Assembly: GCA_002314775.1 (NCBI GenBank)
Contig: DCHE01000013.1
Span: 5,500-69,499 of the forward strand
Length of the DNA: 64,000 bases
Direction: 5' to 3'
Source of the DNA: Lachnospiraceae bacterium UBA1760
Lineage (GTDB): Bacteria > Bacillota > Clostridia > Lachnospirales > Lachnospiraceae
Part shown: positions 1,420-20,196 of the stretch, in pieces
How positions within the stretch are numbered: position 1 is the first letter of the stretch
Layout of the letters: the number at the start of each line of letters is the position of its first letter
The notes under the pieces: model-generated
What the model saw: only the letters and a program-made list of their open reading frames with translations
What the model was told of the DNA's origin: nothing
Databases searched by the model: none
Made by a program: the position numbers and the translations under genes

Positions 1420-1506
1420 ATATTATTAAAAATGATAATAGGTGTACTATGTTCATTTGTAAAAAAAATATTATTATTAAATTCATATATGAAAGGAAAG
1501 AATGTA

Positions 1507-2094
1507 ATGGAAACAAAATTTGGTAAGATTACAGTGGAGACATGCGAGAAGAATGGAGTAGAAATCGAGGGACTCAGAGTTATCACACCTTCTGTATTTG
1601 GAGATGAGAGAGGCTACTTCATGGAGACATATAACTTCAACGATTTCAAGGCAGCAGGAATTGACTGTGAGTTTGTTCAGGACAATCAGTCAAGCTCAAA
1701 GAAGGGAGTTCTTAGAGGCCTTCATTTTCAGATTAACTATCCACAGGATAAGTTAGTAAGAGTTGTAAGTGGTGAGGTTTTTGATGTTGCTGTTGACTTA
1801 AGAGAGGGCTCTAAGACCTATGGACAGTGGTATGGTGTACTTCTTTCAGCAGAGAACAAGAAGCAGTTCTTCATCCCTAAGAACTTTGCACATGGCTTCA
1901 TCGTATTATCAGAGAGCGCAGAGTTCTGCTACAAGTGTACAGATTTCTACCATCCAAATGATGAGGGCGGACTTCTTTGGAAGGATCCAGCAATCGGTGT
2001 AGAATGGCCACTTCCAGAGGGAATGAAGTTCGAGGATCTTACTATTTCAGACAAGGATCAGAAGTGGGGCGGAATAGATACACTTAAGAAGTAG
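1507..2094 (+). CDS. rfbC: dTDP-4-dehydrorhamnose 3,5-epimerase
   Basis: Cupin-type RfbC signature: VFGDERGYFMETYN, QDNQSSSKKGVLRGLHFQ, KLVRVVSGEVFDVAVDLR, FIPKNFAHGF. I chose the internal ATG at 1507 (METKFGK) over the ORF-track start at 1432, because the 25 extra residues are AT-rich spacer translation. Confidence 0.9.
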   Translation: METKFGKITVETCEKNGVEIEGLRVITPSVFGDERGYFMETYNFNDFKAAGIDCEFVQDNQSSSKKGVLRGLHFQINYPQDKLVRVVSGEVFDVAVDLREGSKTYGQWYGVLLSAENKKQFFIPKNFAHGFIVLSESAEFCYKCTDFYHPNDEGGLLWKDPAIGVEWPLPEGMKFEDLTISDKDQKWGGIDTLKK

Positions 2095-2108
2095 GAGAGA
2101 TTATTCCA

Positions 2109-3503
2109 ATGAATACTCATATGAATAAAAAGAAATTAGTTGTTATTTTATTTCTTATAGTAGCAGCGGCATTTCTGAATGTTTTTATCTTTATGAAGAT
2201 GTTCAAGGTAAATCCGGACGAAGAAAAGCTGTATATAAGAATGACAGTGGCATCGGATGCTCTGGATGCATATCAGTCAAACTATGCGGTTCAGGGAATC
2301 TACACTGCGGAGGGAATGTCCGAGTGCCAGATGAATGAGGTGGGAAAGAAGCTCACTATGGACTTTGAGACTGCCTATACAGACACATATTCGTTCTACT
2401 TAGGACACTGGCCTGCTCATATTAAGATATATGATATCAGTTTATTCTCGGCTGGAGTGAAGGTTAATATTCCTTTTGATGTAGTTATGGCAGGGACCAT
2501 GAATGAAGCGGTTTTAAATGCAGAGGTAAGAGATGGAGCACTTAACCTTGATGTAAATGAATTCTATCCTACAATCGAGTTTAATTACGATTCAAGTGTT
2601 GCGAAGACGGCAGTTAGTGATGCTTTAAACAGCAGACATATCAGATACTCAGTTTTACTCTGTATTCTTATTGATCTTGTTGTACTGTATATCATAAGGA
2701 ATCTGAAGGTTATAAAGGAGCTTTACAGAAATCTCAGATATGACAGAAAGCTTATTCTTAGCCTTGCAAAGAATGATTTCAAGACAAAGTTTGCCGGTTC
2801 ATATTTCGGTATTGTGTGGGCTATTGTTCAGCCACTCATAACCATCGTTGTGTACTGGTTTGTGTTCCAGGTTGGACTTAGAACACAGAATATGAACAAC
2901 TTCCCATTTGTACTCTGGCTTATGTGTGGTCTTGTTCCATGGTTTTATTTTTCGGATGCACTCGGTTCAGGAACCAATGCACTTACCGATTACAGCTACC
3001 TGGTTAAGAAGGTAGTATTCAAGATAGAGGTTCTTCCGATTGTGAAGATTTTATCGGCACTTATTGTCAATACCTTCTTTATTGTGTTTATTATCTTCGT
3101 TCTTGCGTGCTATGGTTATACACCTGATATTTATACAATTCAGATTGTTTATTATGTAGTTTGTAATATTGCACTTGTTATGTCACTGACATATATTACC
3201 AGTGCTGTCATCATTTTCTTTAAGGATTTGGGACAGATTATCGGTATTATCCTTCAGATTGGTATATGGATTACACCAATTCTCTGGGATGCAAGTATTA
3301 TCTCACAGAAGCTCGATACCATATTAAAGATTAATCCGGTTTACTACATTGTAAATGGATTTAGAGATGCTCTTCTTACAAAGCACTGGGTTCATGAGAA
3401 CCTTGCGTGGACCTTTGTATTCTGGAGCATGGTTGTGCTTCTTTATATTTCAGGAAAGAAACTATTTACCAGGTTGCAGGTTCATTTTGCTGATGTACTT
3501 TAA
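2109..3503 (+). CDS. ABC-2 type polysaccharide export permease (Wzm/TagG/RgpC-like) with a ~200-aa N-terminal extension
   Basis: The C-terminal ~260 aa looks like a full Wzm: YRNLRYDRKLILSLAKNDFKTKFAGSYFGIVWAIVQP followed by six hydrophobic segments. Residues 1-~205 add a TM helix, a ~145-aa soluble segment and a second TM helix, all in one uninterrupted frame. Confidence 0.85.
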   Translation: MNTHMNKKKLVVILFLIVAAAFLNVFIFMKMFKVNPDEEKLYIRMTVASDALDAYQSNYAVQGIYTAEGMSECQMNEVGKKLTMDFETAYTDTYSFYLGHWPAHIKIYDISLFSAGVKVNIPFDVVMAGTMNEAVLNAEVRDGALNLDVNEFYPTIEFNYDSSVAKTAVSDALNSRHIRYSVLLCILIDLVVLYIIRNLKVIKELYRNLRYDRKLILSLAKNDFKTKFAGSYFGIVWAIVQPLITIVVYWFVFQVGLRTQNMNNFPFVLWLMCGLVPWFYFSDALGSGTNALTDYSYLVKKVVFKIEVLPIVKILSALIVNTFFIVFIIFVLACYGYTPDIYTIQIVYYVVCNIALVMSLTYITSAVIIFFKDLGQIIGIILQIGIWITPILWDASIISQKLDTILKINPVYYIVNGFRDALLTKHWVHENLAWTFVFWSMVVLLYISGKKLFTRLQVHFADVL

Positions 3504-3539
3504 TCAATGCAATTAATAATTAAAAATAGGAGGACAGAT

Positions 3540-4373
3540 ATGAAGGTTCTTGTTACAGGTGCTGCGGGATATATTGGCAGACATGTAGTTGATAAGCTTA
3601 TTGAAAGAGGCGTAGAGGTAATTGCCGCAGATATACGTTATGACGGAGTAAATGAAAAGGCAAAGAGAGCAGACATTAATATATTTGAGGATGATAAGGA
3701 CATCTTTAAGAAGGCTGGAGAGCCAGATGTTCTTGTTCATATGGCATGGAGAAATGGCTTCGTTCACAATGATATGAGCCATCTTGTTGACTTCCCTAAG
3801 CATTTTACATTCATTAAGAATATGGTTGAGGGTGGTCTTAAGCAGGTTGTAGTTATGGGTACAATGCATGAGGTTGGATATTACGAGGGCGCAATTGATG
3901 CAGATACTCCTTGTAATCCAAGGTCATATTACGGTGTGTCAAAGAATGCACTTAGACAGCTTACACTTATGCTTTGCCAGGATAAGGGAGTTACCTGCCA
4001 GTGGCTTAGAGCATATTATATCTTAGGAGATGATTTAAAGAGCAATTCTATCTTCTCTAAGATTACTCAGGCTGCAAATGATGGAAAGAAGGAGTTCCCA
4101 TTTACAACAGGAGAGTGCAAATATGACTTTATCTCAGTTGATGATCTTGCTTACCAGATTGCCGCAACAGCTACTCAGACTGAGGTTAGCGGAATAATTA
4201 ACTGTTGTTCTGGAAAGCCTGTTGCTCTTGGAGAGAGAGTTGAGCAGTTTATAAAGGATAACAACTTTGATATCAAGCTTCAGTATGGAGTTTTCCCAAG
4301 CAGAGCATATGATTCACCTGCAGTATGGGGCGACAGTAGTAAGATTGAAGAGATAATTAAGATAAATCCTTAA
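3540..4373 (+). CDS. NAD(P)-dependent extended-SDR epimerase/reductase (sugar-nucleotide modifying)
   Basis: GAAGYIGRH Rossmann motif at the N-terminus and a YxxxK catalytic pair (YYGVSKNA). Start chosen at the ATG preceded by aggagg. Confidence 0.8.
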   Translation: MKVLVTGAAGYIGRHVVDKLIERGVEVIAADIRYDGVNEKAKRADINIFEDDKDIFKKAGEPDVLVHMAWRNGFVHNDMSHLVDFPKHFTFIKNMVEGGLKQVVVMGTMHEVGYYEGAIDADTPCNPRSYYGVSKNALRQLTLMLCQDKGVTCQWLRAYYILGDDLKSNSIFSKITQAANDGKKEFPFTTGECKYDFISVDDLAYQIAATATQTEVSGIINCCSGKPVALGERVEQFIKDNNFDIKLQYGVFPSRAYDSPAVWGDSSKIEEIIKINP

Positions 4374-4399
4374 TTTATTATTATGTTGGAGAATAAAAC

Positions 4400-5677
4400 A
4401 TGAGCGATATAGCTATAAGTGTAAATGATATAGTAAAGCTTTATAAATTATATGATAAGCCTAGCGACAGATTCAAGGAGGCGCTAGGTCTTACCAAACA
4501 AAAGAAATACAGGGAGCATTATGCTCTTAAGCATGTAAGCTTCCAGGTAAATAAGGGCGAGTGTGTCGGAATTATCGGAACAAACGGTGCCGGTAAATCT
4601 ACAATACTTAAGATTATCACAGGAGTACTTAACCCAACAGAGGGTAATATCCAGGTAAATGGAAAGATTTCCGCATTGCTTGAGCTTGGAGCAGGCTTCA
4701 ACCAGGAATATACTGGAATTGAGAATATCTATCTCAATGGTACAATGATGGGCTATTCCAATGAGGAGATTGAGAAGAGAATTCCAACAATTCTTGATTT
4801 TGCAGACATCGGTGACTTCGTTCACCAGCCGGTAAAGACTTATTCAAGTGGTATGTTCATAAGACTTGCATTTGCGGTTGCAATTAACATTGACCCTGAG
4901 ATTCTCATTGTTGATGAGGCTCTTTCGGTAGGTGATGTTTTCTTCCAGGCAAAGTGTTACCACAAGTTCGAGGAGTTCAAAAATGCCGGCAAGACAATTC
5001 TTTTTGTAAGTCATGATCTTGGTAGTATTCAGAAGTACTGTGACAGGGCAGTTCTTTTAAATAAGGGTGAGAAGTTTGCAGAAGGAACTCCTAAGGATAT
5101 AATCGATGTATATAAGCAGCTTCTTGTAAGCCACGCAGAAAACAGAGATATAAATGATGAGCAGCCAAAGGCTGAGGAGGAATCAATTGCTGAGGATTCA
5201 GTGGTTTGGAAGAACACTCTTATGCTCAATCCGAATGTACTTGATTACGGTGAGAAGGACGCAGAGATTATTGATTTTGCCATAATCGATGCAGAAAACA
5301 GAATCACCAATAATATTCAGAAGAATACTATGTTCAAGATTAGAATGAAGGCCAAGTTCCACAAGGATATAAACGAGCCGATTTTTGCATTTACGATTAA
5401 GGATTTGCAGGGTACAGACGTTACCGGAACTAATACCATGTACGAAAAGATTAATTTTGGAACAGTAGGTGCCGGTGAAATTAAGGTTGTTGAGTTTGAG
5501 CAGAATATGAATCTTCAGGGTAAGAATTATCTTTTATCCTTCGGATTAGTAGGATATCGTGACAGTGATTTCACTGTTTACCACAGATTATATGATGCCT
5601 GCAATATTAACGTAATATCAGATAAAAATACTGTTGGATTCTATGATATGAATTCAGAGATTAAGGTGCTTCAGTAA
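4400..5677 (+). CDS. Polysaccharide/teichoic-acid export ABC ATPase (Wzt/TagH/RgpD-like) with a C-terminal ~170-aa extension
   Basis: Walker A GTNGAGKST, signature YSSGM, Walker B ILIVDEALSVGD, H-loop VSHD. The ~170 residues after the NBD (DYGEKDAEIIDFAIID...FGLVGY...) resemble the Wzt C-terminal beta-sandwich domain. Confidence 0.9.
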   Translation: MSDIAISVNDIVKLYKLYDKPSDRFKEALGLTKQKKYREHYALKHVSFQVNKGECVGIIGTNGAGKSTILKIITGVLNPTEGNIQVNGKISALLELGAGFNQEYTGIENIYLNGTMMGYSNEEIEKRIPTILDFADIGDFVHQPVKTYSSGMFIRLAFAVAINIDPEILIVDEALSVGDVFFQAKCYHKFEEFKNAGKTILFVSHDLGSIQKYCDRAVLLNKGEKFAEGTPKDIIDVYKQLLVSHAENRDINDEQPKAEEESIAEDSVVWKNTLMLNPNVLDYGEKDAEIIDFAIIDAENRITNNIQKNTMFKIRMKAKFHKDINEPIFAFTIKDLQGTDVTGTNTMYEKINFGTVGAGEIKVVEFEQNMNLQGKNYLLSFGLVGYRDSDFTVYHRLYDACNINVISDKNTVGFYDMNSEIKVLQ

Positions 5678-5700
5678 GGAGGCATCCTGGAGGAAAGACA

Positions 5701-6663
5701 ATGAATGGTGAAAACAAGGAAAGCCGGGGAAACATAGATAATATGGATAATATAGATAATATAGATAGTATGGTAAAGATAAATTATGAATACTACAGTG
5801 GTTCAGACCTTTACTTAGACGGTTCAGAGGATACCCTGCTTGACATTGTTACAAATTATACTAAAGAAGAGTATAGTAGTGTTATAGAGGAGAAGAAGGA
5901 CTGGGCAATTCTCTATCATCTCTCTGAGGTGAGAGGGAATATTGTGAGTTTTCTCCCGATAACAAAGGAGGATGACGTGCTTGAGATTGGAGCCGGATGC
6001 GGCGCAATCACAGGCACACTTGCTGATATGGCAAGGAGTGTTGACTGCATTGAGCTCTCTAAAAAGAGAAGTCTTGTCAATGCAGTTAGAAACAAAGAAT
6101 ATGACAATATCACTATAAATGTAGGCAATTTTCAGGATATAGAGCCTAACATTGAAAAAAAGTATGATTATATCACACTTATCGGCGTACTTGAGTATGC
6201 TGCAAGCTACATAGCTGCAAAGGAGCCATATGTAGAATTTTTAAAGATAATTAAGAAGCATTTAAAGGAAGACGGAAAGCTGATTATCGCTATAGAGAAT
6301 AAATATGGTCTCAAATACTTCGCAGGTTGCAGAGAGGATCATCTTGCAACCTTCTTTTCGGGTATAGAGGGTTATATGAATTGTGATTCGGTAAGAACCT
6401 TCTCTAAAAATGGCCTTGAAAAGCTATCGAAGGACGCTGGCTATAAGGACATTGAATTCTATTATCCGTACCCTGATTATAAGCTGCCACTTGCGATTTA
6501 CTCGGATGATTTTCTTCCGGAGGCGGGAGAGCTTAATGTAAATCTCAGAAATTTCGACAGTGACAGAATGCTCCTTTTTGATGAGAGCAATGCGTTTGAC
6601 AATATTATTTCAGATGGAATGTTTGACTTTTTCTCCAATTCATTCCTTGTTTTGATTGGGTAA
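5701..6663 (+). CDS. Class I SAM-dependent methyltransferase
   Basis: Motif I VLEIGAGCGAITGTLA with downstream acidic residues (IELS, and ITLIGVLEY as motif IV-like). Good RBS ggagg. Confidence 0.8.
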   Translation: MNGENKESRGNIDNMDNIDNIDSMVKINYEYYSGSDLYLDGSEDTLLDIVTNYTKEEYSSVIEEKKDWAILYHLSEVRGNIVSFLPITKEDDVLEIGAGCGAITGTLADMARSVDCIELSKKRSLVNAVRNKEYDNITINVGNFQDIEPNIEKKYDYITLIGVLEYAASYIAAKEPYVEFLKIIKKHLKEDGKLIIAIENKYGLKYFAGCREDHLATFFSGIEGYMNCDSVRTFSKNGLEKLSKDAGYKDIEFYYPYPDYKLPLAIYSDDFLPEAGELNVNLRNFDSDRMLLFDESNAFDNIISDGMFDFFSNSFLVLIG

Positions 6664-6675
6664 GAGGTAGTAGCT

Positions 6676-8400
6676 ATGGAAAAAGTAATCTTTGCAAAGT
6701 ATGTAAATGACAGAGGCGAAAAGTACAGACTTAGAACAGAAATTGTAAAGCATGAAGACGGTTCTAGAAGTGTAAGAAAGCTTCCATGCGGAAAATACGG
6801 CATGGACCGATTAAGATATATAGAGAAAACCTGCAGAGTACTCACAGAGGAGTTTTCTGGAAGCTTTTTAAAGATTAATAAGGTTGAGCTTTCTTACGAC
6901 AGACTAAATATTGATTATGTTGAAGGCAATTCCCTTGCATATGAGGTTGAAAAATGTGAGGAGCAAAATGATGTTAAGGCTTATGTGAACCTTGTCACAG
7001 GCTTTGCAGATGAGCTTAGGAGAATTGCAAGGGAGGATTTTACTGTTACTGATTCCTTCACTGAGGTATTTGGCGAGGTGCCAGCGGGCATTTCTGACAA
7101 AAGCTTTAAGGTGAGTGACATTGATCTTATCTTCAGCAATGTAATTGTAAAAGATGGAAAATATACAATAATAGATTACGAGTGGACATATCATTTTTCA
7201 GTGCCACTTGGATATATTATGTACAGAATATATAAGTACTCTAAGAAGCCTAAGGAGGTATTCCTGGCTGATGAAGAATATAAGAGAATACTTGGAATAG
7301 ATGATACACTTATACCGGTGTATGAGAGGATGGAGGAGTCTTTTCAGGCGAGCACAGTCAAGGGACACGCTCCTTTGTGGAGACTTTATGACACGATAGG
7401 AAAAGGTCTCTATAATCCTCAGGAGGAGATGCTTAAGTCGGCGGAGGAGCTTGAACTTAGGCGTATCCAGATAAAGAAGGGCTACGGCACAGAGAGGGAA
7501 GAGGAGAACGACTATATCTTCCCAATGCCAGATATAAATGGAGATATTACAATAGATATAAAGGTTGACTCTGAGATTAAATTCCTCCAGATAGCCCCGG
7601 CTTCTAGAAGGTGTAGTGTATACCTTAAGGAGTTTACCGGTTTTAACGGAGAGAGATATCAGGTAGACTGGGATTCAAATGGAGTTAGTGCTGACAAAGA
7701 GCTGATAACCTTTGACACCACTAGTCCTCAGCTTTGGACCTATGATTTTAGAGAGGGAATAACCTCATTAAGAGTTGTTCTGAATATAGATTATCTTGGA
7801 AATACTAATACTGCTAAGTATGCAGAGCTTCAGAATATCGCTAAAATGAGCGAGAATAAGGACACGGAGATAAGTAGTCTTAAGGAGATGATGGACTCGT
7901 TATCTTTAGTTCTTTCTGAGACAAAGGATAAGCTTGCAAGTCTGGAAGAGGAAAGGGATGGTCTGGCTGAGCAGGCAAAGAATCTCTCAGAAATTTGTGA
8001 GGGACGACAAAATGAGATAAATCTGCTCAAGGCGTGCGTTTCCGATAAGGATAAAATGCTTGAAGATAAGGATAAAAAGCTTGAGGAAAAGATGCAATGG
8101 ATATATCAGAGGGATGATGTAATAAGAGCGAAGATGAACGAGATTTCTCTTCATAAAAAGGAGAAAAAACGCACTGACAAGATAAGCGAAGAAAATGCCA
8201 GAACGATAAATGAACTTGGAGAGAAAATTGATGGTATGAGCATAGAGCTTGACAGCTTGAAGGGAGAAATTGAGAGCTTATGTCAGAAGCTTGGAGAGAC
8301 TGAACAGAAATACCAGGAACTTGCCAAGGAGCATGGCAGGGTTGTAAACTCAACCTGCTGGAAGATAACCAAACCACTTAGAAAGATTAAGAGACACTAA
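6676..8400 (+). CDS. Kinase-fold-like N-terminal domain + long C-terminal coiled coil + basic tail (WbdD-like terminator/ruler candidate)
   Basis: Residues 150-169 read DLIFSN(x10)IDYE, matching the D-x4-N catalytic loop plus metal-binding IDxE of APH/choline-kinase-type folds. Residues ~385-560 are heptad-like and charged (SLKEMMDSLSLVLSETKDKLASLEEERDGLAEQAKNL...IDGMSIELDSLKGEIESLCQKLGETEQKYQELAKE). The protein ends in WKITKPLRKIKRH. The function is inferred. Confidence 0.55.
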   Translation: MEKVIFAKYVNDRGEKYRLRTEIVKHEDGSRSVRKLPCGKYGMDRLRYIEKTCRVLTEEFSGSFLKINKVELSYDRLNIDYVEGNSLAYEVEKCEEQNDVKAYVNLVTGFADELRRIAREDFTVTDSFTEVFGEVPAGISDKSFKVSDIDLIFSNVIVKDGKYTIIDYEWTYHFSVPLGYIMYRIYKYSKKPKEVFLADEEYKRILGIDDTLIPVYERMEESFQASTVKGHAPLWRLYDTIGKGLYNPQEEMLKSAEELELRRIQIKKGYGTEREEENDYIFPMPDINGDITIDIKVDSEIKFLQIAPASRRCSVYLKEFTGFNGERYQVDWDSNGVSADKELITFDTTSPQLWTYDFREGITSLRVVLNIDYLGNTNTAKYAELQNIAKMSENKDTEISSLKEMMDSLSLVLSETKDKLASLEEERDGLAEQAKNLSEICEGRQNEINLLKACVSDKDKMLEDKDKKLEEKMQWIYQRDDVIRAKMNEISLHKKEKKRTDKISEENARTINELGEKIDGMSIELDSLKGEIESLCQKLGETEQKYQELAKEHGRVVNSTCWKITKPLRKIKRH

Positions 8401-8420
8401 GCAAAATTTAGGAGGACCAG

Positions 8421-10661
8421 ATGAAGCTTGACACAAATGCTAAGCGATTACTAATATATTATTTCTATGACAAGGCTGGAAAGCTTGATAAATATGTATC
8501 TTACTATCTCAGAAGAATGAAGGAATATGTTTCTGATATTGTATTTGTCTTAAATGGCGAGCTTAATCAGGACGGAATAGATGAGATCGAGGATATTGGT
8601 GCAAGACTTATCGAAAAGCAATGCTTTGGATTTAACATGCTCGGCTATAAGGCAGCAGTTGATGATATTACAATAGATGGACTTAAGGAATACGATGAGG
8701 TCATTTTTTCGGACTACTCTATTATGGGGCCAGTGTATCCACTTTCGGAAACCTTCGATAAGATGAATGATACAGATGTAGATTTCTGGGCTATGACAAA
8801 ATATTTTTCGGCAAATGATGCTGATACTTCCTATGATTATATTCAGTCACATTTTATCGTCTACAGAAAATCAGTGACTGAGTCGGAGGCATTTTCAAAC
8901 TATTGGGCTTCGATTGCTGAGGCTATAGATATGAGCTATGAATTGCGACTTACAAGAGATTTTGTAGCCGCTGGCTTTAAGTATGAGATGGCTGTATATC
9001 AGGATGACTTGAGGACTATTAGCTATCAGCCGGTAGTTGGATCGGCAACAAAGATGGTGAATGAGAGAAGATGTCCTTTAGTAAAAAGGCACGCATTTAC
9101 TCAGGATTACTCAGTGGTTCTTGATGAGGGAATGGGAAATGAAGCCTATGAGCTTTATCAGTATATTGATAAGAAAACAGACTATGATGCAGATATGATT
9201 CTTGAGAATCTGCTGAGACTTGAGAATCAGGCAGATTTGAAGAAGAATCTTCAGTGGAATTACATTCTTCCGTCGGACATTGCAAAGTCTGAGCTGAAGA
9301 TAAAAAAAGAGAGAATCGCGCTTGCTATGCACATTTACTTTGGTGATCTGATTGAAGAATGTGCAGGCTATGCCAAGAATATGCCGGATGGAACCGATAT
9401 GTATATTACAGTCAATTCCGAGGCAAACAAAAAGAAGGCTGAGGAGGTATTCTCAAAGCTTAACTGTGGAAAGCTTGTTGTTAGAGTAGTTCCAAATATC
9501 GGAAGAGATGTTGCTCCTTATCTTGTTGAGTTTCGTGAGTTTTTGGATAATTATGACATTGTTTGTCATGCTCATGACAAGAAGTCGGGTCAGACAAGAC
9601 CGGGCTCAATTGGTACTGCATTTGCATACAAATGCTTTGAAAATATTCTCGGAACAAAGGAATATGTTCAAAATATTATTAACCTTTTTGCAGAGAATAA
9701 AAGGCTTGGATTTATCACACCACCTCCACCAAATCATGCAGAGTACTATATAATATTTGGTCTGGAGTGGGGACTTAATTTTGCTAATACCAAGGAATTT
9801 GCAGAGAGTCTTGGAATCGATGTTCCTATGGACGAGAAGAAGGAGCCTATAGCAGGACTTGGTTCATTTTACTGGGCAAGAACAGATGCTATAAAGGCTG
9901 TATTCAAGAAGAAATGGACCTACGATGATTTTCCAAAGGAGCCACTTCCAATCGATGGAACTCTTCTTCATGCGATTGAGAGAATATATTCATTTGCAGC
10001 ACAGGCAAAGGGCTACTATCCAGGCTGGATAATGTCTGACAAGCTTGCTGATATGGAGGTAACAAACCTCAACCATATGATTAGATCTGTGAATGATATT
10101 ATTTTCTTTACGGGAAATGATGCAGGATCCTTCCACGAAACCAAAAAGAATCTTAGAGCGTCTTATAACAGACTGAAAAAATATGAGGGGCATTTTGATG
10201 GCGCGGGTCAGTCAAAGCTCTTCTTTGAAAATGGCCCTTGGGAGATATCTCGTAATTTCTTCCTCGATATTCCTATTATTAGCGCAGGAACTAGCATTGA
10301 GGAGGATGGCACGGAAAAGGTAATTGCAAGCTACAATATTGATTTGCCATACGGGTTTTCGATGCTTAAGTTTGATTATGAGATGAGACCTGAAGGAAAA
10401 TTCAAGCTGTACAGCATGGCTATAAGAATAGTGGATGAAGATGGCAAGGCGACAGTGCTTGAGCTTTTTGATAAAGTATCAACAAATGGAATCGTGATGG
10501 ATGACGGAATACAGTTTCTAATCGATAATCCTAGAGTCAGCTTTGAACTTAAGGATTACATTAGTGTTAAGAATATGACGGTTATGGCTTGTTTCTCAGA
10601 GGGAATAAATAACAAGGCACTGGAGTTTATTACAAGAAAGCTTACGGATGAAGAAGAATAA
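8421..10661 (+). CDS. Rhamnan synthesis protein F (RgpF)-family glycosyltransferase with an extra C-terminal domain
   Basis: RgpF-like blocks: LLIYYFYDKAGKLDKYVSYYL, DEVIFSDYSIMGP, DFWAMT, then ALAMHIYFGDL...GRDVAPYLVEF...CHAHDKKS. About 180 additional C-terminal residues have no motif I recognise. Confidence 0.75.
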   Translation: MKLDTNAKRLLIYYFYDKAGKLDKYVSYYLRRMKEYVSDIVFVLNGELNQDGIDEIEDIGARLIEKQCFGFNMLGYKAAVDDITIDGLKEYDEVIFSDYSIMGPVYPLSETFDKMNDTDVDFWAMTKYFSANDADTSYDYIQSHFIVYRKSVTESEAFSNYWASIAEAIDMSYELRLTRDFVAAGFKYEMAVYQDDLRTISYQPVVGSATKMVNERRCPLVKRHAFTQDYSVVLDEGMGNEAYELYQYIDKKTDYDADMILENLLRLENQADLKKNLQWNYILPSDIAKSELKIKKERIALAMHIYFGDLIEECAGYAKNMPDGTDMYITVNSEANKKKAEEVFSKLNCGKLVVRVVPNIGRDVAPYLVEFREFLDNYDIVCHAHDKKSGQTRPGSIGTAFAYKCFENILGTKEYVQNIINLFAENKRLGFITPPPPNHAEYYIIFGLEWGLNFANTKEFAESLGIDVPMDEKKEPIAGLGSFYWARTDAIKAVFKKKWTYDDFPKEPLPIDGTLLHAIERIYSFAAQAKGYYPGWIMSDKLADMEVTNLNHMIRSVNDIIFFTGNDAGSFHETKKNLRASYNRLKKYEGHFDGAGQSKLFFENGPWEISRNFFLDIPIISAGTSIEEDGTEKVIASYNIDLPYGFSMLKFDYEMRPEGKFKLYSMAIRIVDEDGKATVLELFDKVSTNGIVMDDGIQFLIDNPRVSFELKDYISVKNMTVMACFSEGINNKALEFITRKLTDEEE

Positions 10662-12165
10662 AAAACTAATTGCGTTAATTATAATGCTCCTTATGACATT
10701 TTCAGCTGTGTATCAGGGCGTGGCAGCACCCTATGTAAGGGAGAGCTATGCTGCTTACGATAGCGAAAATGACCCTGACATTACAGATAAAAAGAACAGT
10801 CTAAGTGAGAGCGTTGAATATATTGATGATGAGTCTTTAACTGAAGGAGCCAAAGAAAACTCTTTATTTGGAAAGACTCAGATTAAGTATGCTGATTCGG
10901 TGGAAAACACAGTTTATTTTACTGATGTTGACTGGGATGAGTATGCCTGCGACTATTGCTATAATAAGCTTTCTGATTATCAGAAGGTTTATTATGACAG
11001 AATTGACAGTCTTGTCAGAGCATATATGAATCAGGATATTGATGCACTTGATACCTACAAGGAGTCAAAGGGAATATATGTGCTTCCTAAGGTGGTTTAC
11101 TCAGATATTGAGATAAAGGATGATAAGGGAAATTCTACGGGAAGCTTTATGCCAAAGGAAGAGGCTACAAATGTATACAAGCTGTATATGACTCAGCATC
11201 CAATATATTATTTTGTTAACTCAAAATTCCTTGTTTCTACTACTGGTATTTATGTTCACTGCTATGATGAATTTGCGGACGGTGAGGCAAGATACCTGGC
11301 TACACTGAAGCTGTTAAGTCAGATTGATAAATGGGTAGAGCAGGCCAAGGCTGAACCTACGGAATATCTTCTTGAAAAGAAGGTCCATGATTTGATATGT
11401 GAGAACACCTGCTACGACCGAGTTGATACTGATGCATACATCAACCAGTCTGCATACAGTATGATTATTAATAAGAGTACAGTTTGTGCAGGGTATGCAA
11501 AGACCTTTGCAATTTTAATGAACAAGCTTGGTTATAGTACAATTGCTATTACTGGTACAAATCATGCCTGGAACAAGGTACTGTTTAAGGACAAATGGTA
11601 CAATGTCGATGTAACCTGGGATGATCTCGATTCGGAAACCTTGTGCAAATACACCTATTTCAATCTTTCGGACAGTGAGTTCGGCAGCGGACATACACCT
11701 TTTAGCTATTATGATGGATTGCTTCCGGAAAGTAAGGAAACCTATGTTCCAACCAAGGAAGACCTGAATGAAAAGAGCGGCACACCGACGGACGCAACAC
11801 CGACGGACGCAACACCTACTGACGCAACTCCAACAGATGCGCCATCTGAGGATGAGCCAAATGGCGAGATTGTCGGAATCTGTCAGATGCCAAATCCTGG
11901 GCAGGGCGGAGGCTTTTTGATTGGAGTTGAGGCAACTCCGCTTGAAAAAGGAAATTATAAGTATGAGATACTCATACTTGACTGCACTCTTCTTGCAAGA
12001 GGAGAGGATGCATGGATATATACAACAGGTAAGTTTGAAACAGGCACCAACTCAGCATGGATTGTTTGGCAGCCTGAGTATGGTTACTATTGGACACTTT
12101 TCAGAATTTATGACGAAAAAGACAATTTACTCGATGAAAAGTGTTACGGATTTCAAAATATTTAA
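10648..12165 (+). CDS. Secreted transglutaminase-like (Cys-His-Asp) protein with a TPTDA-repeat linker
   Basis: Signal peptide MKKNKKLIALIIMLLMTFSAVYQGVAA. Transglutaminase-core pattern: TVCAGYAKTFAILMNKLG, NHAWNKV, NVDVTWDD. The start overlaps the RgpF-like stop by 14 nt. Confidence 0.7.
   Translation: MKKNKKLIALIIMLLMTFSAVYQGVAAPYVRESYAAYDSENDPDITDKKNSLSESVEYIDDESLTEGAKENSLFGKTQIKYADSVENTVYFTDVDWDEYACDYCYNKLSDYQKVYYDRIDSLVRAYMNQDIDALDTYKESKGIYVLPKVVYSDIEIKDDKGNSTGSFMPKEEATNVYKLYMTQHPIYYFVNSKFLVSTTGIYVHCYDEFADGEARYLATLKLLSQIDKWVEQAKAEPTEYLLEKKVHDLICENTCYDRVDTDAYINQSAYSMIINKSTVCAGYAKTFAILMNKLGYSTIAITGTNHAWNKVLFKDKWYNVDVTWDDLDSETLCKYTYFNLSDSEFGSGHTPFSYYDGLLPESKETYVPTKEDLNEKSGTPTDATPTDATPTDATPTDAPSEDEPNGEIVGICQMPNPGQGGGFLIGVEATPLEKGNYKYEILILDCTLLARGEDAWIYTTGKFETGTNSAWIVWQPEYGYYWTLFRIYDEKDNLLDEKCYGFQNI
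11783..11842 (+). repeat. 4 x 15-bp in-frame tandem repeat (TPTDA)4
   Basis: acaccgacggacgca occurs twice exactly, followed by two diverged copies. This encodes TPTDATPTDATPTDATPTDA. Confidence 0.9.
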
Positions 12166-12182
12166 AATGAGTGGTATTTCAG

Positions 12183-14015
12183 ATGTTTAGAGTGATTAAG
12201 AAAGCATTTAACCCTGTCAGCTACTACAGACTTTTCTCGTATATCAAGAGAAAAGGCTTTAAGGGCATTATGGGAAAGTTTAAAAGTGGTATGAGAGAGG
12301 GCAATTCGCCGGACGAGATGTATGAGCTGTGGTTTTTGAAGCACAGAGTGAAGGACGCAGAGCTGCTTGAGGAGGCAAAGCATAACTTTTCGTACAGTCC
12401 AAAGATCAGCATTCTTGTGCCAACCTACAATACTCCTAAGAGATTCCTTAAGGAGATGATTGACTCGGTAATCGGTCAGTCATATTCAAACTGGGAGCTT
12501 TGCATTGCTGACGGAAGCACAGATGAAAAGACAAAGAAATGTTTAAGGGAGTATGCTGAGAAGGACAAGAGAATAGTAATTACCTGGCTTGATAAGAACT
12601 ACGGAATTTCAGGGAATACAAACAAGGCACTTGAGATTGCAACTGGTGACTTTATCAGTATGCTTGACCATGATGATGTCTTTGAGAAGGACCTTCTTTT
12701 TGAGGTTGTCTCAGCACTTCAGGATAAGAGTGCAGATATGGTTTACACTGATGAGGATAAGATTGTTGGAAAAAGAAGAAGCTGGAGCTATAAGGATCCT
12801 AACTTCAAGCCGGATTTCAGTATTGATTTACTGAGGTCTCACAATTACATTACTCATTTTGTGGCAATAAAGAAGGATATTATTGACGAGATAGGCGGCT
12901 TTAGAAGCGAGTTTGACGGATCGCAGGATTTTGACCTTCTGCTTCGTTCGGTAGAGAAGGTCCTTGCGAGAAAAGGAAAAATCCTGCATGTGCCTAAGGT
13001 GCTTTACCACTGGAGAATTCACAGCCAGTCTACTGCAGGTAATCCTGAAAGTAAGCTTTACTGCTACGAGGCTGGAAGAAAAGCTCTTGTTGAGCATTAT
13101 GAGAGACTTGGCATTAAGGCAAATGTTGAGATGACTGATATGTGGGGACTGTACCATACCAGATATGAGACAGTTGGCAATCCACTTCTTTCTATTATTA
13201 TTCCTAACAAGGATCATATTGATGACCTTGAAAAGTGTATAGTTTCACTTGTTGAAAATAGCACCTACAAAAATGTTGAGTTTGTAGTTGTTGAGAATAA
13301 CAGTGAGGATGAAAAAACCTTCAAGTACTACGAGGAGCTTGAAAAGAGATTCGACAATGTGAGAGTTGTTTACTGGAAAGGCATTTTCAACTATGCAGCT
13401 ATTAATAATTTTGGAGTAAAGGAAGCAAAGGGAGATTACCTTTTACTTCTTAACAATGATACAGAGCTTATTCTTCCTGACTCAGTGGGAGATATGCTTG
13501 GAATCTGCATGAGAGAAGAGGTTGGTGTAGTTGGACCGAAGCTTCTTTTTGCAGATGACACTATTCAGCATGCTGGTATTGTTCTTGGCTTTGGAGGCTT
13601 TGCAGGACACGTATTTACCCAGCTTACTGATGATAACCTTGGCTTTATGATGAGACCAAGAATAAACTGCAATTACAGTGCAGTGACAGGAGCCTGCCTT
13701 ATGACAAAGCGTTCTGTCTATGAGGAGGTCGGAGGTCTTACAGAGGATTTCGTTGTAGGACTTAATGATGTTGATTTCTGTATGAAGGTGAGAAAGAAGA
13801 ATTATTTTATCACCTATGATGCCTTTGCAAAATGGCATCACTATGAATCTAAGTCAAGAGGCTATGAGGACACTCCAGAGAAGAAGAAGAGATTTCAGGG
13901 TGAGATAGATTTATTCCAGTCACTTTGGGGCGAGGAGTTAAAGAAGGGAGATCCTTTCTACAATCCTAATTTCCTTGTCACAAGAGCACCATTTACATTA
14001 CATCCAGAGGACTAA
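12183..14015 (+). CDS. Two-domain family-2 glycosyltransferase (paralog 1 of 3)
   Basis: Domain A: ISILVPTYNTP...DHDD...YTDEDK. Domain B: LSIIIPNKD...LLLLNNDTE...NDVDFC...HHYESKSRG. Start at 12183 chosen by alignment with the paralog 2 N-terminus (MFRVIKKAFNP vs MISKVKKIFNP). Confidence 0.85.
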   Translation: MFRVIKKAFNPVSYYRLFSYIKRKGFKGIMGKFKSGMREGNSPDEMYELWFLKHRVKDAELLEEAKHNFSYSPKISILVPTYNTPKRFLKEMIDSVIGQSYSNWELCIADGSTDEKTKKCLREYAEKDKRIVITWLDKNYGISGNTNKALEIATGDFISMLDHDDVFEKDLLFEVVSALQDKSADMVYTDEDKIVGKRRSWSYKDPNFKPDFSIDLLRSHNYITHFVAIKKDIIDEIGGFRSEFDGSQDFDLLLRSVEKVLARKGKILHVPKVLYHWRIHSQSTAGNPESKLYCYEAGRKALVEHYERLGIKANVEMTDMWGLYHTRYETVGNPLLSIIIPNKDHIDDLEKCIVSLVENSTYKNVEFVVVENNSEDEKTFKYYEELEKRFDNVRVVYWKGIFNYAAINNFGVKEAKGDYLLLLNNDTELILPDSVGDMLGICMREEVGVVGPKLLFADDTIQHAGIVLGFGGFAGHVFTQLTDDNLGFMMRPRINCNYSAVTGACLMTKRSVYEEVGGLTEDFVVGLNDVDFCMKVRKKNYFITYDAFAKWHHYESKSRGYEDTPEKKKRFQGEIDLFQSLWGEELKKGDPFYNPNFLVTRAPFTLHPED

Positions 14016-14043
14016 AAAAGCTAAAAAGGATTGCGAGAAAACT

Positions 14044-15867
14044 ATGATTTCCAAGGTGAAAAAGATATTTAATCCAAACAGTGTCAGAAGACTTGTAAAT
14101 TATGTCTCTGAAAATGGATTAAAGGGTGTCGGAGAGAAAATTAAAAAAGGCATGGGCGAGGGAACCGTTCTTTCGGATATATATCCTGAATGGTTTTTGA
14201 GTACCCGTGTGTCAAATGACGAATTGGAAAAGCAGAGAGAGGCTCATTTTGATTATGAGCCTCTTATCAGTATTCTTGTGCCTACGTATAATACTCCTGA
14301 GAAATTTTTAGAAGAGATGATAGAGTCCTGCATCAGTCAGTCCTACAAAAACTGGGAGCTTTGCATTGCAGATGCAAGTACAGATTATGGGACAAGAAAC
14401 GTGCTGAAGGCATATATGGCAAAGGATGCAAGGATAAAAATTACCTGGCTCAGAGATAATCTTGGAATTTCAGATAATACCAACGAGGCACTGAAGCTTG
14501 CGAAGGGTGAATACATTGGTCTTCTTGATCATGATGATGTGATTGAGCCAGATTTATTTTATCAGCTTGTACTTATGCTTCAGGATACCGACTATGAATT
14601 TATATATACCGACGAGGATAAGATTATCGGAAAGGGCGACAAATGGAGGTATGCAGAACCACATTTCAAGCCTGATATCAGCATAGATTTGCTCAGATCC
14701 CACAATTATATAACTCATTTTGTTCTGGTTAAATCGGACGTCATGAGTGAGATTGGCGGACTTCACAAGGAGTTTGATGGTTCACAGGATTATGATTTGA
14801 TCCTAAGAGCCTATGATATTGTTACAAAAAAGGGTAAGAAGATTGGACATGTTCCAAGGGTGCTATACCACTGGAGGGTTCATGAGGGCTCCACAGCAAA
14901 GAATCCGGAAAACAAGATGTACTGCTACGAGTCCGGTAGAAACGCAATTATGGCCGAGCTTGAGAGAAATGATATCAGGGCTTACGTTGACACAAGCGAG
15001 CTTTGGGGTATTTACAACGTAAAGTACAGGTCGAAGTGTAATCCCCTTTTATCTATTGTAATTCCTGTGAGAAAGGAAGAATCCCAGGTTGATACCTGCA
15101 TTCAGACAATAATTGATAAGAGTGATTATAAAAATACAGAGTTTATTATTGTTCTTCCAAAGATTGCTTCTGAAAAGCTTGTGAAAAAGCTGGTAAGTCT
15201 TAAATCAAAGTACAAGAATGTTTACATTGCCAGAAGCATCAGGAATAATTATTCGGCAATGGTCAATCTGGCGGTTGCATCAGCTAAGGGAGAGTATGCG
15301 TTACTTTTAAATGAGAATGTTTCAATGATAAAGCCAGATACTATATCCAATATGGCTTCTATGCTTGAGAGAGAAGAGGTTTGCGCAGTTGGTGCAAAGC
15401 TACTTACTCACGAGGACAGGATATACCATGCAGGAATAATCCTTGGAGCAAGGGAGCGAATTGTTGAGGTTCACGAGGGACTTAAGGATGATGAGTATGG
15501 ATATATGGAGAGGGCAATTTTAAATGGCAATTATTCCGCCTATTCCTCAGAATGTCTGATGCTAAAGAAGAAGGATTATCAAAGGGTGCTTGGCTTTGAT
15601 GAGTCGCTCAGCGAGGGCGCAGGTATGGTTGATTTTGGACTTAAGCTTACAAAGGAAGGCCGGCTTATTACATATGCAGCTGGACTTAAATGGTATATAG
15701 CCAGAGATAAGAGTGAGAGGATTATTTCAGAGGAAGAAAAGGAGCTTCTCATAAGTCGCTGGAGCGAGGTGTTTGAGAAGGGCGATCCGTACTATAATCA
15801 GTCATTCTCAAGGAACCAAAAGCCATTTATGGTTGAAATTGATACAAATAACGAAGTGAAAGAATAA
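14044..15867 (+). CDS. Two-domain family-2 glycosyltransferase (paralog 2 of 3), C-terminal domain degenerate
   Basis: Domain A is intact (ISILVPTYNTP, LLDHDD, YTDEDK). Domain B reads LLLNENVS, AGMVDFG and WYIARDKSE where paralog 1 has NNDTE, NDVDFC and HHYESKSRG. The ORF-track start at 13975 overlaps paralog 1 and was rejected. Confidence 0.85.
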   Translation: MISKVKKIFNPNSVRRLVNYVSENGLKGVGEKIKKGMGEGTVLSDIYPEWFLSTRVSNDELEKQREAHFDYEPLISILVPTYNTPEKFLEEMIESCISQSYKNWELCIADASTDYGTRNVLKAYMAKDARIKITWLRDNLGISDNTNEALKLAKGEYIGLLDHDDVIEPDLFYQLVLMLQDTDYEFIYTDEDKIIGKGDKWRYAEPHFKPDISIDLLRSHNYITHFVLVKSDVMSEIGGLHKEFDGSQDYDLILRAYDIVTKKGKKIGHVPRVLYHWRVHEGSTAKNPENKMYCYESGRNAIMAELERNDIRAYVDTSELWGIYNVKYRSKCNPLLSIVIPVRKEESQVDTCIQTIIDKSDYKNTEFIIVLPKIASEKLVKKLVSLKSKYKNVYIARSIRNNYSAMVNLAVASAKGEYALLLNENVSMIKPDTISNMASMLEREEVCAVGAKLLTHEDRIYHAGIILGARERIVEVHEGLKDDEYGYMERAILNGNYSAYSSECLMLKKKDYQRVLGFDESLSEGAGMVDFGLKLTKEGRLITYAAGLKWYIARDKSERIISEEEKELLISRWSEVFEKGDPYYNQSFSRNQKPFMVEIDTNNEVKE

Positions 15868-15868
15868 T

Positions 15869-17659
15869 ATGAATAAAGACACATTTTACGGAGTAAAAAA
15901 TAATATTAAAAAGACTGGAGCCTACATTAAAAAGGTAGGAATAAGGAGCACAGCCAGCAGAGTTAAGTCATATATAACAACTCACAACAGATATATGAAG
16001 TGGCACGAGCAAGGTGTACTGTCTGAGAGTGAGAGAAAAGAGCACAGAGAGCTTTCGGATAAGCTTAATTTTAAGCCGAGGATAAGTATTATCGTGCCGG
16101 TATTTAGGACAAAGGATGTTTTTCTTAAGCAGCTGATTGATTCAGTTATTGCCCAGACCTATCCTAATTTTGAACTTGTGCTTGCTGACGGTAGTGCAAA
16201 TAAGGATGAATCCAGCCGGATTTCAAGGCTGATAAGACATAATTATCCGGAGGAGGAGAGAATTGTCTATAAGCTTCTTTCTGATAATTTTGGTATAGCT
16301 GGCAATACAAATGAAGCAATTAAGGCTGCTACAGGGGAGTGGCTTGCATTTCTTGATCATGACGATTATATAGATGAGGATGCACTTTTCCAGATGGCAA
16401 AGCTTCTTAATGAGAAGCCAGGCCTAAAGCTTATCTACACTGATGAGGACAAATGCAACTTTGATGGTACAAGGTATTTCTATCCCCATTTCAAGCCGGA
16501 CTTTAATCTTGATTTGCTTAGAGCAAGCAATTATATATGTCATTTTCTATTTGTGAGAAAGGATGTTGCAAAAAAGGTCGGAAATATTAGAAGTGATTTT
16601 GACGGAGCTCAGGATTATGATTTTGTGCTAAGGTGCGTTGAGGAGATTGACGACGAGAGAAAGATTGGACATGTTGCAAAGCCGCTTTATCACTGGAGAG
16701 TTCATGAGGAATCTACAGCAGGAAGTCTTGACTCAAAGGGCTATGCCAGAAATGCGGGCAAAAAGGCGCTTGTTGAGCATCTTTTGAGACAGGATATCAA
16801 GGGTGAGGTGCTTCTTTCGGAGGAGGGTGAGTTCTTTAGAGTGAGATACTGTCCGGAGGAAAAACCACTTGTTTCTATAATAATATATTCTGAGAAAAGT
16901 CTGGATGCAAAAAATCTGATTATGTCCATTGGCGAGCAGGAGTATAGGAATTATGAGATACTTCTCTATTCTGGAGATTCTGAGATACGTAAAGAATTTA
17001 AGGATATAAGCATTCTTGCGAAGAAGCTTTCGGTTTACGAGTGGAAGAATGAGCCGATTATTTGTGATGTGTATAACCACGCAGTAAAAAAATGCAAGGA
17101 TGAGCTGATACTGTTTGCTGACAATAATATAGTTCTCAGAGATACCTCTACACTTGGTGAGCTCGTCTCATTTATGTCGAGAGAAGAGGTGGGCGCCTGC
17201 TCGGGAAGAATATATAATCCTTACGGAGGACTTTTCCATGCTGGAATGTTCCTGGGTGGGGATATGGCATTAAACAGAAGCTTCTATAATAAGAAGGAAG
17301 CGGACGGAGTGTATTTCGATAGAAGCAAGATGTCTCAGGACTTCACCTGCCTTGGTATTGAGTTTCTTATGATTAAGAAATCTATGTTTAAGCTTGCCAA
17401 GGGCTTTGACAGGACACTGGGAGAGAAATTTGCCGCAGCAGATTTTTGTCTGAAGCTCAGGGTTGACGGATACCTGAATGTCTATGCGCCAAATGCGAAG
17501 GCAACCTATACTGGAAAGCCTGGTCACACAGAAGCTGATGAGACAAGAATAAGACTGTTTAAGGAAAAATGGTCCGAGCTTCTTGAAAATGGTGATCCTA
17601 ATTACAATCCGAATTTGTCCTTGAACAGGACGGATTACTCAATTGATGTTAAAAAATAG
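15869..17659 (+). CDS. Two-domain family-2 glycosyltransferase (paralog 3 of 3), C-terminal domain degenerate
   Basis: Domain A is intact (ISIIVPVFRT, FLDHDD, YTDEDK, LYHWRVHEEST). Domain B reads LFADNNI, FAAADFC and ATYTGKPGH. Confidence 0.85.
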   Translation: MNKDTFYGVKNNIKKTGAYIKKVGIRSTASRVKSYITTHNRYMKWHEQGVLSESERKEHRELSDKLNFKPRISIIVPVFRTKDVFLKQLIDSVIAQTYPNFELVLADGSANKDESSRISRLIRHNYPEEERIVYKLLSDNFGIAGNTNEAIKAATGEWLAFLDHDDYIDEDALFQMAKLLNEKPGLKLIYTDEDKCNFDGTRYFYPHFKPDFNLDLLRASNYICHFLFVRKDVAKKVGNIRSDFDGAQDYDFVLRCVEEIDDERKIGHVAKPLYHWRVHEESTAGSLDSKGYARNAGKKALVEHLLRQDIKGEVLLSEEGEFFRVRYCPEEKPLVSIIIYSEKSLDAKNLIMSIGEQEYRNYEILLYSGDSEIRKEFKDISILAKKLSVYEWKNEPIICDVYNHAVKKCKDELILFADNNIVLRDTSTLGELVSFMSREEVGACSGRIYNPYGGLFHAGMFLGGDMALNRSFYNKKEADGVYFDRSKMSQDFTCLGIEFLMIKKSMFKLAKGFDRTLGEKFAAADFCLKLRVDGYLNVYAPNAKATYTGKPGHTEADETRIRLFKEKWSELLENGDPNYNPNLSLNRTDYSIDVKK

Positions 17660-20184: not shown

Positions 20185-20196
20185 GGAGGCAGAATA

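Follow-up and report, generated by a model that had tools for sequence, protein, structure and literature searches.

How does a Gram-positive bacterium that sends a rhamnose-rich wall polysaccharide out through a transporter of the ATP-binding cassette (ABC) type determine where a chain ends and which chains are exported? A 2022 review states that no experiments support what has been proposed for the ending of chains in the rhamnose wall polysaccharides of Gram-positive bacteria, and in the Rgp, Gac and EPA pathways the glycosyltransferase RgpE has been proposed as the terminator, a role that is likewise experimentally unsupported (PMC9574508). We asked this question of a 64,000-nucleotide stretch of Lachnospiraceae bacterium UBA1760 (assembly GCA_002314775.1, contig DCHE01000013.1, positions 5,500 to 69,499 of the forward strand), referred to here as the window. 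Three consecutive open reading frames (ORFs) on its + strand are central to the answer. They encode the transporter ATPase Wzt (4400-5677, 425 amino acids), a class I S-adenosylmethionine (SAM) methyltransferase (5701-6663, 320 amino acids), and a 574-amino-acid protein that consists of a kinase-like domain, a beta-sandwich and a coiled coil (6676-8400). An earlier reading of the window, made from its letters only (the sequence-only reading), had placed the three ORFs at these positions, which we confirmed, and had taken them for a WbdD-like cap-and-export module. Judged by its sequence, the window encodes a Gram-positive and fully disaggregated methyltransferase-kinase terminator of the Klebsiella pneumoniae O7 type, together with a carbohydrate-binding Wzt. 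We propose, with a probability of roughly 0.75, that the locus would function as a cap-and-export system, in which a methyl-phosphate cap is placed on a rhamnose-rich wall polysaccharide and only capped chains are exported.

The methyltransferase and kinase-like genes correspond to the N-terminal part of O7 ORF6

K. pneumoniae O7 ORF6 contains, in this order, a methyltransferase, a previously unannotated 223-residue kinase domain whose nearest structure is an aminoglycoside-type kinase (AmiN), an immunoglobulin-like fold, a coiled coil, and two family 2 glycosyltransferase (GT2) modules (PMC11231755). In vitro, ORF6 adds a phosphate and then a methyl group to O3 of the terminal alpha-1,3-rhamnose; the kinase reaction is abolished in the D441A variant, and ORF6 variants were also assayed in vivo for lipopolysaccharide export (PMC11231755). 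The authors describe the O7 kinase as unlike WbdD in sequence and structure, and the orthologues in their 2024 paper on K. pneumoniae O4 and O7 come from alpha- and gammaproteobacteria and cyanobacteria only (PMC11231755, J Biol Chem 2024).

We rebuilt residues 1-443 of O7 ORF6, a partial sequence, from the primers of that paper and its machine-read (OCR) Fig S9. With the rebuilt sequence as the query, we obtained more than 4,600 relatives. The Pseudomonas sp. M1 orthologue of the paper (P0073) is one of them, and it is also among the 40 relatives that made up an O7-type profile. We found that the window-family profile and the O7-type profile align in hhalign with a probability of 100% (E=2.8e-62) over 451 columns, which cover the methyltransferase and the complete kinase domain (aa 1-231 of the window protein). 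The window pair is identical at 58 of the 82 invariant O7-type columns, including those of P0073 G91, G93, Y28, E112, D446, N451, D464 and E466. FIDAVPQN, the O7 stretch with the catalytic aspartate D441, and DIDLIFSN of the window follow one D-x4-N pattern, and both families continue with (L/I)IDxEW. By this profile comparison, the window pair is homologous to the N-terminal methyltransferase-kinase terminator of O7 ORF6.

The two systems are alike in several further respects. Their methyltransferases belong to the same subfamily and share VLEIGAGCGAIT, LIGVLEYA, IAIENxxGLKYFAG, PDYKLP and NSFL, and their kinases belong to a common family that has no Pfam model and carries D-x4-N followed by IDxEW. 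The parts stand in identical order (methyltransferase, kinase, beta-sandwich and coiled coil), the neighbours rmlC, wzm, wzt with a Wzt_C domain, and GT2 or RgpF are shared between O7-type systems and the window, and the O7 polymer is rhamnose-based, as that of the window is predicted to be. Since ORF6-like parts were matched across the window proteins, the window encodes an ORF6-like protein as separate polypeptides: the methyltransferase, kinase-coil and GT2 modules are spread over three or more polypeptides, whereas O7 ORF6 is one protein of 1414 residues. The hosts differ as well, as the window comes from a Gram-positive member of the Clostridia whose polymer is presumably ligated to peptidoglycan by a LytR-CpsA-Psr (LCP) enzyme, while the O7 polymer is carried on lipid A-core.

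The window protein is not a member of the WbdD family

Relatives of the 574-residue protein are mostly single polypeptides in which the kinase-like domain comes after a methyltransferase of the window's subfamily (GLKYFAGC, FYYPYPDY and FSNS(Y/F)L motifs). Since this domain order matches that of WbdD, WbdD was tested directly, with the 708-residue protein of the Escherichia coli HS O9 locus as the reference. Membership in the WbdD family was rejected, as hhalign aligned only 94 columns at the SAM motif with a probability of 13%. A profile search of the PDB found generic methyltransferases, and its 60 listed matches (of 96) did not include WbdD; nor did the 50 listed Foldseek matches of the kinase model, the best of which are small-molecule kinases of the aminoglycoside phosphotransferase (APH) type. 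The structure search recovered the kinase-like fold that the sequence-only reading had anticipated (Foldseek probability 1.0), and WbdD, whose fold is of the eukaryotic-protein-kinase kind and closest to Src-type kinases, was not among the matches listed. The family label of that reading is wrong, while the cap-and-export logic behind it is well supported by homology and synteny.

WbdD of E. coli O9a and K. pneumoniae O3 nevertheless has the same domain order as the window proteins, with a coiled coil after the kinase, and may share a common logic with them, in which a chain is capped by phosphate and then methyl and export is gated by the C-terminal domain of Wzt. An SxSW(R/K)xTK motif directly follows the coil in both. 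WbdD continues for approximately 100 residues past this motif, which serve membrane binding and WbdA recruitment and are missing from the window protein; furthermore, WbdD is a single polypeptide that acts on a mannan rather than a rhamnan.

A putative terminator cassette is conserved in related Clostridia

We searched one genome per species by pattern and found a relative in 530 genomes; the locus counts given here are from the best 80 of these 530. Among the 80 genomes, 79 are titled Clostridia or carry no taxon name, and Lachnospiraceae, Blautia, Ruminococcus, Coprococcus, Robinsoniella and Clostridium are represented. Candidate cultured relatives carrying the cassette are Blautia wexlerae MSK.20.46 (L078), Coprococcus hominis CLA-AA-H212 (L008), Robinsoniella peoriensis CCUG 48729 (L063) and Clostridium puniceum DSM 2619 (L043). 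The order rmlC-wzm-wzt-methyltransferase-kinase-GT2 is conserved across the 80 loci. A Wzt_C domain is present in 76 loci, wzm and GT2 in 73 each, and rmlC in 65, directly upstream of wzm in most of the loci that have it. RgpF adjoins the cassette in just one locus.

Methyltransferase and kinase are fused in 39 of the 80 loci and split in 40. The split into two polypeptides that had been singled out in the window is real, but it is not special. Approximately 20 of the 80 loci encode a kinase-coil protein fused to GT2 modules, and two of them (L033 and L047) encode full ORF6-like fusions of approximately 1,460 residues. In the locus of the Pseudomonas orthologue, the genes are arranged as rmlBDAC-wzm-wzt(Wzt_C)-terminator-GT-RgpF, which is the gene order of the window. 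In other organisms, we also observed proteins in which a coiled coil joins the kinase-like domain to RgpF (P0068, P0223 and P0226) or to a family 4 glycosyltransferase (GT4; P0222, P0227 and P0229). These fusions indicate that the terminator module combines with several types of polymerase.

The kinase-like domain has a kinase fold and conserved catalytic residues

The kinase-like domain occupies aa 1-240 of the 574-residue protein (6676-7395, + strand) and is supported by AlphaFold2, Foldseek and hhalign. Its candidate catalytic residues are K35, D150, N155, D167 and E169, with DLIFSN at aa 150-155 (nt 7123-7140) and IDYEW at aa 166-170 (nt 7171-7185). In an alignment of 64 sequences (the protein and 63 relatives), no variation occurs at D150, N155, I166, D167, Y168, E169, W170 and R184, and at least 90% of the sequences keep K35; a kinase-only alignment repeats this picture. 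The AlphaFold2 model, which was built on the 64-sequence alignment, has block means of the predicted local distance difference test (pLDDT) above 90 across aa 1-240 except for aa 191-200. In the kinase-only profile, sub-threshold matches to the N-lobe of JAK1 put K35 at the position of the beta-3 lysine. The D-x4-N and IDYE signature that had been picked out from the letters is more than a chance resemblance, in view of these invariant residues and of the kinase fold of the model.

When compared with the PDB in Foldseek, the kinase model is closest to aminoglycoside 3'-phosphotransferases, including APH(3')-Ia (E=8.7e-7, probability 1.0, target TM-score approximately 0.5), followed by a macrolide phosphotransferase, an ethanolamine kinase and protein kinases, with identities of 10-17%. 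This ranking indicates a protein-kinase-like fold of the small-molecule or sugar kinase type. Such matches could also be taken to mean that the protein is an APH-type small-molecule or antibiotic kinase that stands in the locus by chance, as aminoglycoside and macrolide phosphotransferases lead the ranking. These matches are weak, however, in both TM-score and identity, and the APH/choline-kinase family PF01636 gave no Pfam hit in the window kinase domain or in any of 20 relatives; the similarity to the APH type is structural only. Moreover, the kinase is fixed in the wzm-wzt-methyltransferase-kinase-GT2 cassette of the 80 best genomes, is often fused to the methyltransferase, GT2, GT4 or RgpF, and has profile homology to the O7 glycan kinase. 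The conserved fusions make a bystander of the APH type very unlikely.

Coiled-coil noise aside, no Pfam or NCBIfam family matched the 574-residue protein. The kinase-only profile matched 3,106 of 1.84 billion representatives (E<=0.001), and named relatives are annotated as 'hypothetical protein' or, if fused, as 'class I SAM-dependent methyltransferase'. Our analysis suggests a putative function for this kinase-like domain without a Pfam model and for its approximately 3,100 cluster representatives.

The methyltransferase and the probable chemistry of the cap

The product of 5701-6663 (+ strand) matches several class I SAM methyltransferase families in Pfam, and its motif I, LEIGAGCGAIT, spans aa 94-104 (L94-T104, nt 5980-6012), in agreement with the EIGAGCGAITG-type motif from which the sequence-only reading had named the enzyme. 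Residues G97 and G99 are the counterparts of O7 G91 and G93. The enzyme is 46% identical to the rebuilt O7 ORF6 domain over 197 residues (E=2e-46), and the shared stretch VLEIGAGCGAIT is identical over 12 residues. Among the 72 invariant methyltransferase columns of the proteobacterial O7-type family, 51 are identical in the window, including the motif I glycines G91 and G93 and the SAM-binding residues Y28 and E112; the SAM-binding residue Y158 of O7 was left out of this scoring as it is near-invariant in the family only. After the stop codon (TAA, 6661-6663) come a GAGG ribosome-binding site and then the ATG of the next gene, and we conclude from this arrangement that the division between methyltransferase and kinase is a real gene boundary and not a frameshift.

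In a subgroup of fused relatives of approximately 594-640 residues (P0002, P0007, P0013 and P0025), the methyltransferase region is shortened to approximately 210 residues and carries LLVVSDRLENLEGMWDYIVV in place of the GxGxG SAM motif; four loci (L010, L029, L036 and L066) probably encode similar truncated regions. By their sequences, fused relatives without GxGxG may leave a phosphate-only cap or may use the methyltransferase region as a scaffold.

We considered whether the cap might not be methyl phosphate at all, in which case the terminal sugar would be O-methylated directly and the kinase-like domain would serve as a non-catalytic scaffold or add a separate phosphate. WbdD of the O8 type, which is a methyltransferase only, methylates sugar hydroxyls directly (PMC3482155), and the absence of GxGxG from the shortened methyltransferase region of P0002, P0013 and P0025 indicates that the two activities can be uncoupled. 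We nevertheless regard direct O-methylation as improbable here: the kinase residues K35, D150, N155 and D167 vary little or not at all, the methyltransferase shares 46% identity with an enzyme shown to methylate a sugar phosphate, and about half of the relatives have the methyltransferase fused ahead of the kinase.

The transporter carries a predicted cap-recognising domain

Wzt (+ strand) contains a complete ABC_tran domain (aa 43-175, Pfam E=4.7e-24) and, beyond it, a Wzt_C domain (Pfam PF14524) at aa 281-417 (nt 5240-5650, E=2e-42), which covers profile positions 3-143 of 143. The extra C-terminal residues that had been noticed after a complete nucleotide-binding domain contain this Wzt_C domain, which is predicted to be the cap-recognising module. 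Over its entire length, Wzt is 38% identical both to E. coli O9 Wzt (E=1e-95) and to a Pseudomonas Wzt, and its top sequence match in the PDB is Wzt in 8dku and 7k2t, in the ATPase domain only (E=1e-82). The combination of an ATPase domain and Wzt_C, known from the Wzm/Wzt O-antigen transporters of E. coli O9a and of 8dku/7k2t, is likewise present in the window.

We also considered deducing the identity of the cap from Wzt_C. When compared alone, the domain is 28% identical to the O9 Wzt_C and 23% identical to that of the Pseudomonas locus, about equally distant from both. These low identities are uninformative on which cap is bound, and the deduction was dropped.

The permease gene wzm (2109-3503, + strand; Pfam ABC2_membrane at aa 216-422, E=7.5e-13) differs from that of known Wzm/Wzt O-antigen transporters by an additional N-terminal region of approximately 205 residues. 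In a hydropathy scan, this region (aa 1-205, 2109-2720) shows hydrophobic segments at approximately aa 5-35 and aa 177-203 that flank a soluble stretch of approximately 140 residues. The wzm match begins approximately 600 nt earlier in roughly 9 of the 80 loci, which points to a wzm of similar length there; in the remaining loci, Wzm apparently comprises approximately 270-290 residues.

The beta-sandwich, the coiled coil and the basic tail

Following the kinase-like domain, the AlphaFold2 model contains a beta-sandwich of nine strands (aa 263-373, 7462-7794, + strand). In the full model, its block-mean pLDDT values range over 82-96 and mostly exceed 90; aa 255-380 modelled alone gave a pLDDT of 89. 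A search of the PDB with aa 255-380 gave no significant match (best E=0.016, all TM-scores below 0.5), and no Wzt_C chain was among the 50 listed matches. The domain occupies the position of the immunoglobulin-like 'CBM' in O7 ORF6; this likeness is positional, and the 'CBM' label is unproven.

The coiled coil, a proposed spacer or ruler, extends over aa 379-552 (7810-8331, + strand). AlphaFold2 predicts long helices at aa 379-473, 483-552 and 559-573. The approximately 174 residues of aa 379-552 lack proline and have a high content of Glu, Lys and Leu. Their hydrophobicity has a periodicity of 3.5 residues, with a power of 160.8 compared to 10.2 +/- 10.3 for shuffled sequences (0 of 1,000 reached this value), which runs in phase across the helices at aa 379-473 and 483-552 and was not seen in the kinase or beta-sandwich parts of the protein. 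The near-repeat DKDKMLEDKDKKLEEK lies within the coil at aa 457-472, and the basic tail STCWKITKPLRKIKRH, a conserved end-of-coil motif, runs to the stop codon (8350-8400, + strand). These features confirm what had been read from the letters alone, namely an uninterrupted charged coil with a near-repeat and a basic end. A hydropathy scan found no membrane-spanning segment in the 574-residue protein.

The protein stops four residues past CWKITKPLRK, and its 8-residue motif starts 16 residues from the end. Of 71 window-type proteins, 8 carry the pattern [ST]xxW[KR]h[TY][KRQS] at a distance of 12-36 residues from the C-terminus, as do 16 of 120 O7-type proteins, where approximately none would be expected from shuffling, and E. 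coli WbdD carries SRSWRMTK immediately after its coiled coil. The statement in the sequence-only reading that SW(R/K)ITxPLR-like tails recur on such proteins is thus right. In four fused clostridial proteins (L017, L027, L050 and L077), the junction between coil and GT2 reads SFCWKITKP(I/V)R, which shares its core with the last 14 residues of the window protein; this indicates that the window protein ends exactly at the fission point.

We reasoned that the coiled coil probably oligomerises the 574-residue protein and holds its catalytic head away from the CWKITKPLRK end, and that the membrane or the polymerases are the probable docking site of this tail. Whether the coil also measures chains is a separate matter, and a length-measuring role, which it may have, is the weakest point of the mechanism we propose. 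In its fullest form, this proposal would make the 574-residue protein a free-standing terminator and spacer that plugs through its CWKITKPLRK tail into RgpF and GT2 enzymes, with the length of the coil setting species-specific chain lengths; we consider this possible, though on balance doubtful. Alternatively, the module may cap the chain while the coil only oligomerises the terminator and tethers it, via the basic tail, to the membrane or the polymerases, so that chain length would follow from the ratio of terminator to polymerase activity. Most relatives retain the tail motif despite a short helical stretch (approximately 400-435 residues from the kinase start), and the position of the tail at the coil/GT2 junction of fused proteins suits a linker or a docking role, as a simple tether would have it. 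On the other hand, proteins without glycosyltransferase modules range from approximately 400 to 574 residues from the kinase start, variation that would be expected of a tunable spacer, and the length of the WbdD coil does set the size distribution of its polymer. The variation in coil length is compatible with either a tunable spacer or a simple tether, and we hold the tether to be a serious contender at somewhat below even odds.

Proposed mechanism of capping and export

We hypothesized that RgpF and the GT2 enzymes would build the polymer on a lipid carrier at the cytoplasmic face of the membrane. At the non-reducing end, the kinase-like domain of the 574-residue protein would then phosphorylate the terminal sugar (most likely rhamnose) on one of its hydroxyls, and the separate methyltransferase (5701-6663) would methylate the terminal phosphate. 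The resulting methyl-phosphate cap would halt elongation and would be recognised by Wzt_C, such that Wzm and Wzt would export capped chains only. An LCP enzyme would then ligate the exported chain to the wall.

Several observations weigh against this proposal. The case for the polymer of this host is drawn from sequence comparison, structure models and synteny. A single-sequence comparison with the partial, OCR-derived O7 kinase segment was not significant, and the homology of the kinase holds at the profile level only. The presence of RgpF, three double GT2 proteins and an extra epimerase implies that the polymer, and with it the acceptor sugar, may differ from those of O7. The beta-sandwich has no recognisable relative in the PDB search, and Wzt_C is just 23-28% identical to the O9 and Pseudomonas Wzt_C domains. 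Finally, the distance from the kinase start to the C-terminus is approximately 400-435 residues in most clostridial relatives, compared with 574 here; with the helical stretch of most relatives being short, a long ruler is not a general feature of the family.

Capping and export in the context of Gram-positive rhamnans

The Rgp, Gac and EPA pathways of streptococci, lactococci and enterococci share an RgpF-type enzyme, export by an ABC transporter, ligation by LCP enzymes and rml genes with the window. No methyltransferase-kinase terminator has been described for these pathways (PMC9574508), whereas the window encodes a putative one. The view that a terminator made of kinase and coil is uncharacterised in Gram-positive bacteria, also put forward in the sequence-only reading, is consistent with both the review and the O7 study (PMC9574508, PMC11231755).

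Our data suggest that many gut Clostridia may share the cap-and-export control that was recently proven for a Klebsiella O antigen. The proposal makes a testable chemical prediction for many gut Clostridia, namely a terminal methyl phosphate on rhamnose. On the further, doubtful reading in which coil length sets chain length, Gram-positive rhamnan-type polymers of hundreds of gut Clostridia would have, next to a defined end of methyl phosphate, a length code that can be read from the genes. To a specialist in ABC-transporter-dependent glycan assembly, such a system would be expected in principle and useful in practice. Polymers of this kind may be immunologically active: the glucorhamnan of Ruminococcus gnavus signals via TLR4, and a defined terminal epitope together with length control could matter for host interaction and for phage receptors.

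The glucorhamnan cluster of R. gnavus ATCC 29149 (RUMGNA_03512-03534) includes rfbC (03528), a glycosyltransferase (03524) and a gene with 'no known homologs' (03525) (PMC6601261). The spacing of RUMGNA_03524-03528 would fit an rmlC-wzm-wzt-terminator-GT cassette, and with it an ABC-transporter route as opposed to the flip-then-polymerise route that has been proposed. No hit named gnavus was among the relatives found, and RUMGNA_03525 is at most a candidate member of the family.

Neighbouring genes and locus layout

The terminator genes are part of a run of eleven + strand genes, from rmlC (start at 1432) to the last GT2 gene (end at 17659), whose gaps in the ORF list are at most 26 nt or are overlaps. 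These short gaps on one strand suggest an operon, and the genes of 1432-17659 look like a single one, which would direct the synthesis of a rhamnose-containing cell-wall polysaccharide by the ABC-transporter-dependent route. The run begins with rmlC (1432-2094; Pfam dTDP_sugar_isom E=3.8e-72), a dTDP-4-dehydrorhamnose 3,5-epimerase gene that also opens the conserved cassette. Between wzm and wzt lies a gene for an NAD-dependent sugar epimerase/reductase (3507-4373; Pfam Epimerase E=1e-27). A homologue of this gene was found in only one of the 80 related loci, on the opposite strand, and from this rarity we infer that the gene may provide a further sugar that is particular to this polymer.

Downstream of the kinase-like gene, the RgpF-type rhamnan synthesis protein (8421-10661; Pfam RgpF E=6.6e-165, aa 40-532) is a candidate polymerase partner of the terminator. 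Its C-terminal extension of approximately 200 residues (aa 541-746, 10041-10661) has no Pfam match and no tblastn match across the 80 related loci. Three tandem two-module GT2 glycosyltransferases (12171-14015, 13975-15867 and 15869-17659; Pfam Glycos_transf_2) are candidate polymerase modules, and the first of them shares 33% identity (E=8e-28) with the rhamnosyltransferase that forms the first GT2 module of O7 ORF6. Within the operon, a gene at 10648-12165 overlaps the end of rgpF by 14 nt and encodes a transglutaminase-like core (Pfam E=1.6e-6) with a hydrophobic N-terminus, probably a signal peptide, and a linker of four TPTDA repeats.

The housekeeping genes aspS, gatA and gatB (18061-23117) separate the operon from a second block, and the polysaccharide locus is thus in two parts. 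The second block contains a dTDP-glucose 4,6-dehydratase-like gene (23152-24237), a small GT2 gene (24265-25020) and an LCP ligase gene (25140-26279, + strand; Pfam LytR_cpsA_psr E=3.8e-38), the product of which probably attaches the polymer to peptidoglycan. RgpF and LCP had both been noted as nearby; RgpF directly follows the terminator genes, but the LCP gene lies approximately 17 kb downstream of them, past aspS-gatA-gatB. Two RNA elements on the + strand, a 6S RNA (34276-34453, 78.9 bits) and a T-box leader (39334-39560, 102.7 bits), are also present in the window and are unrelated to the terminator.

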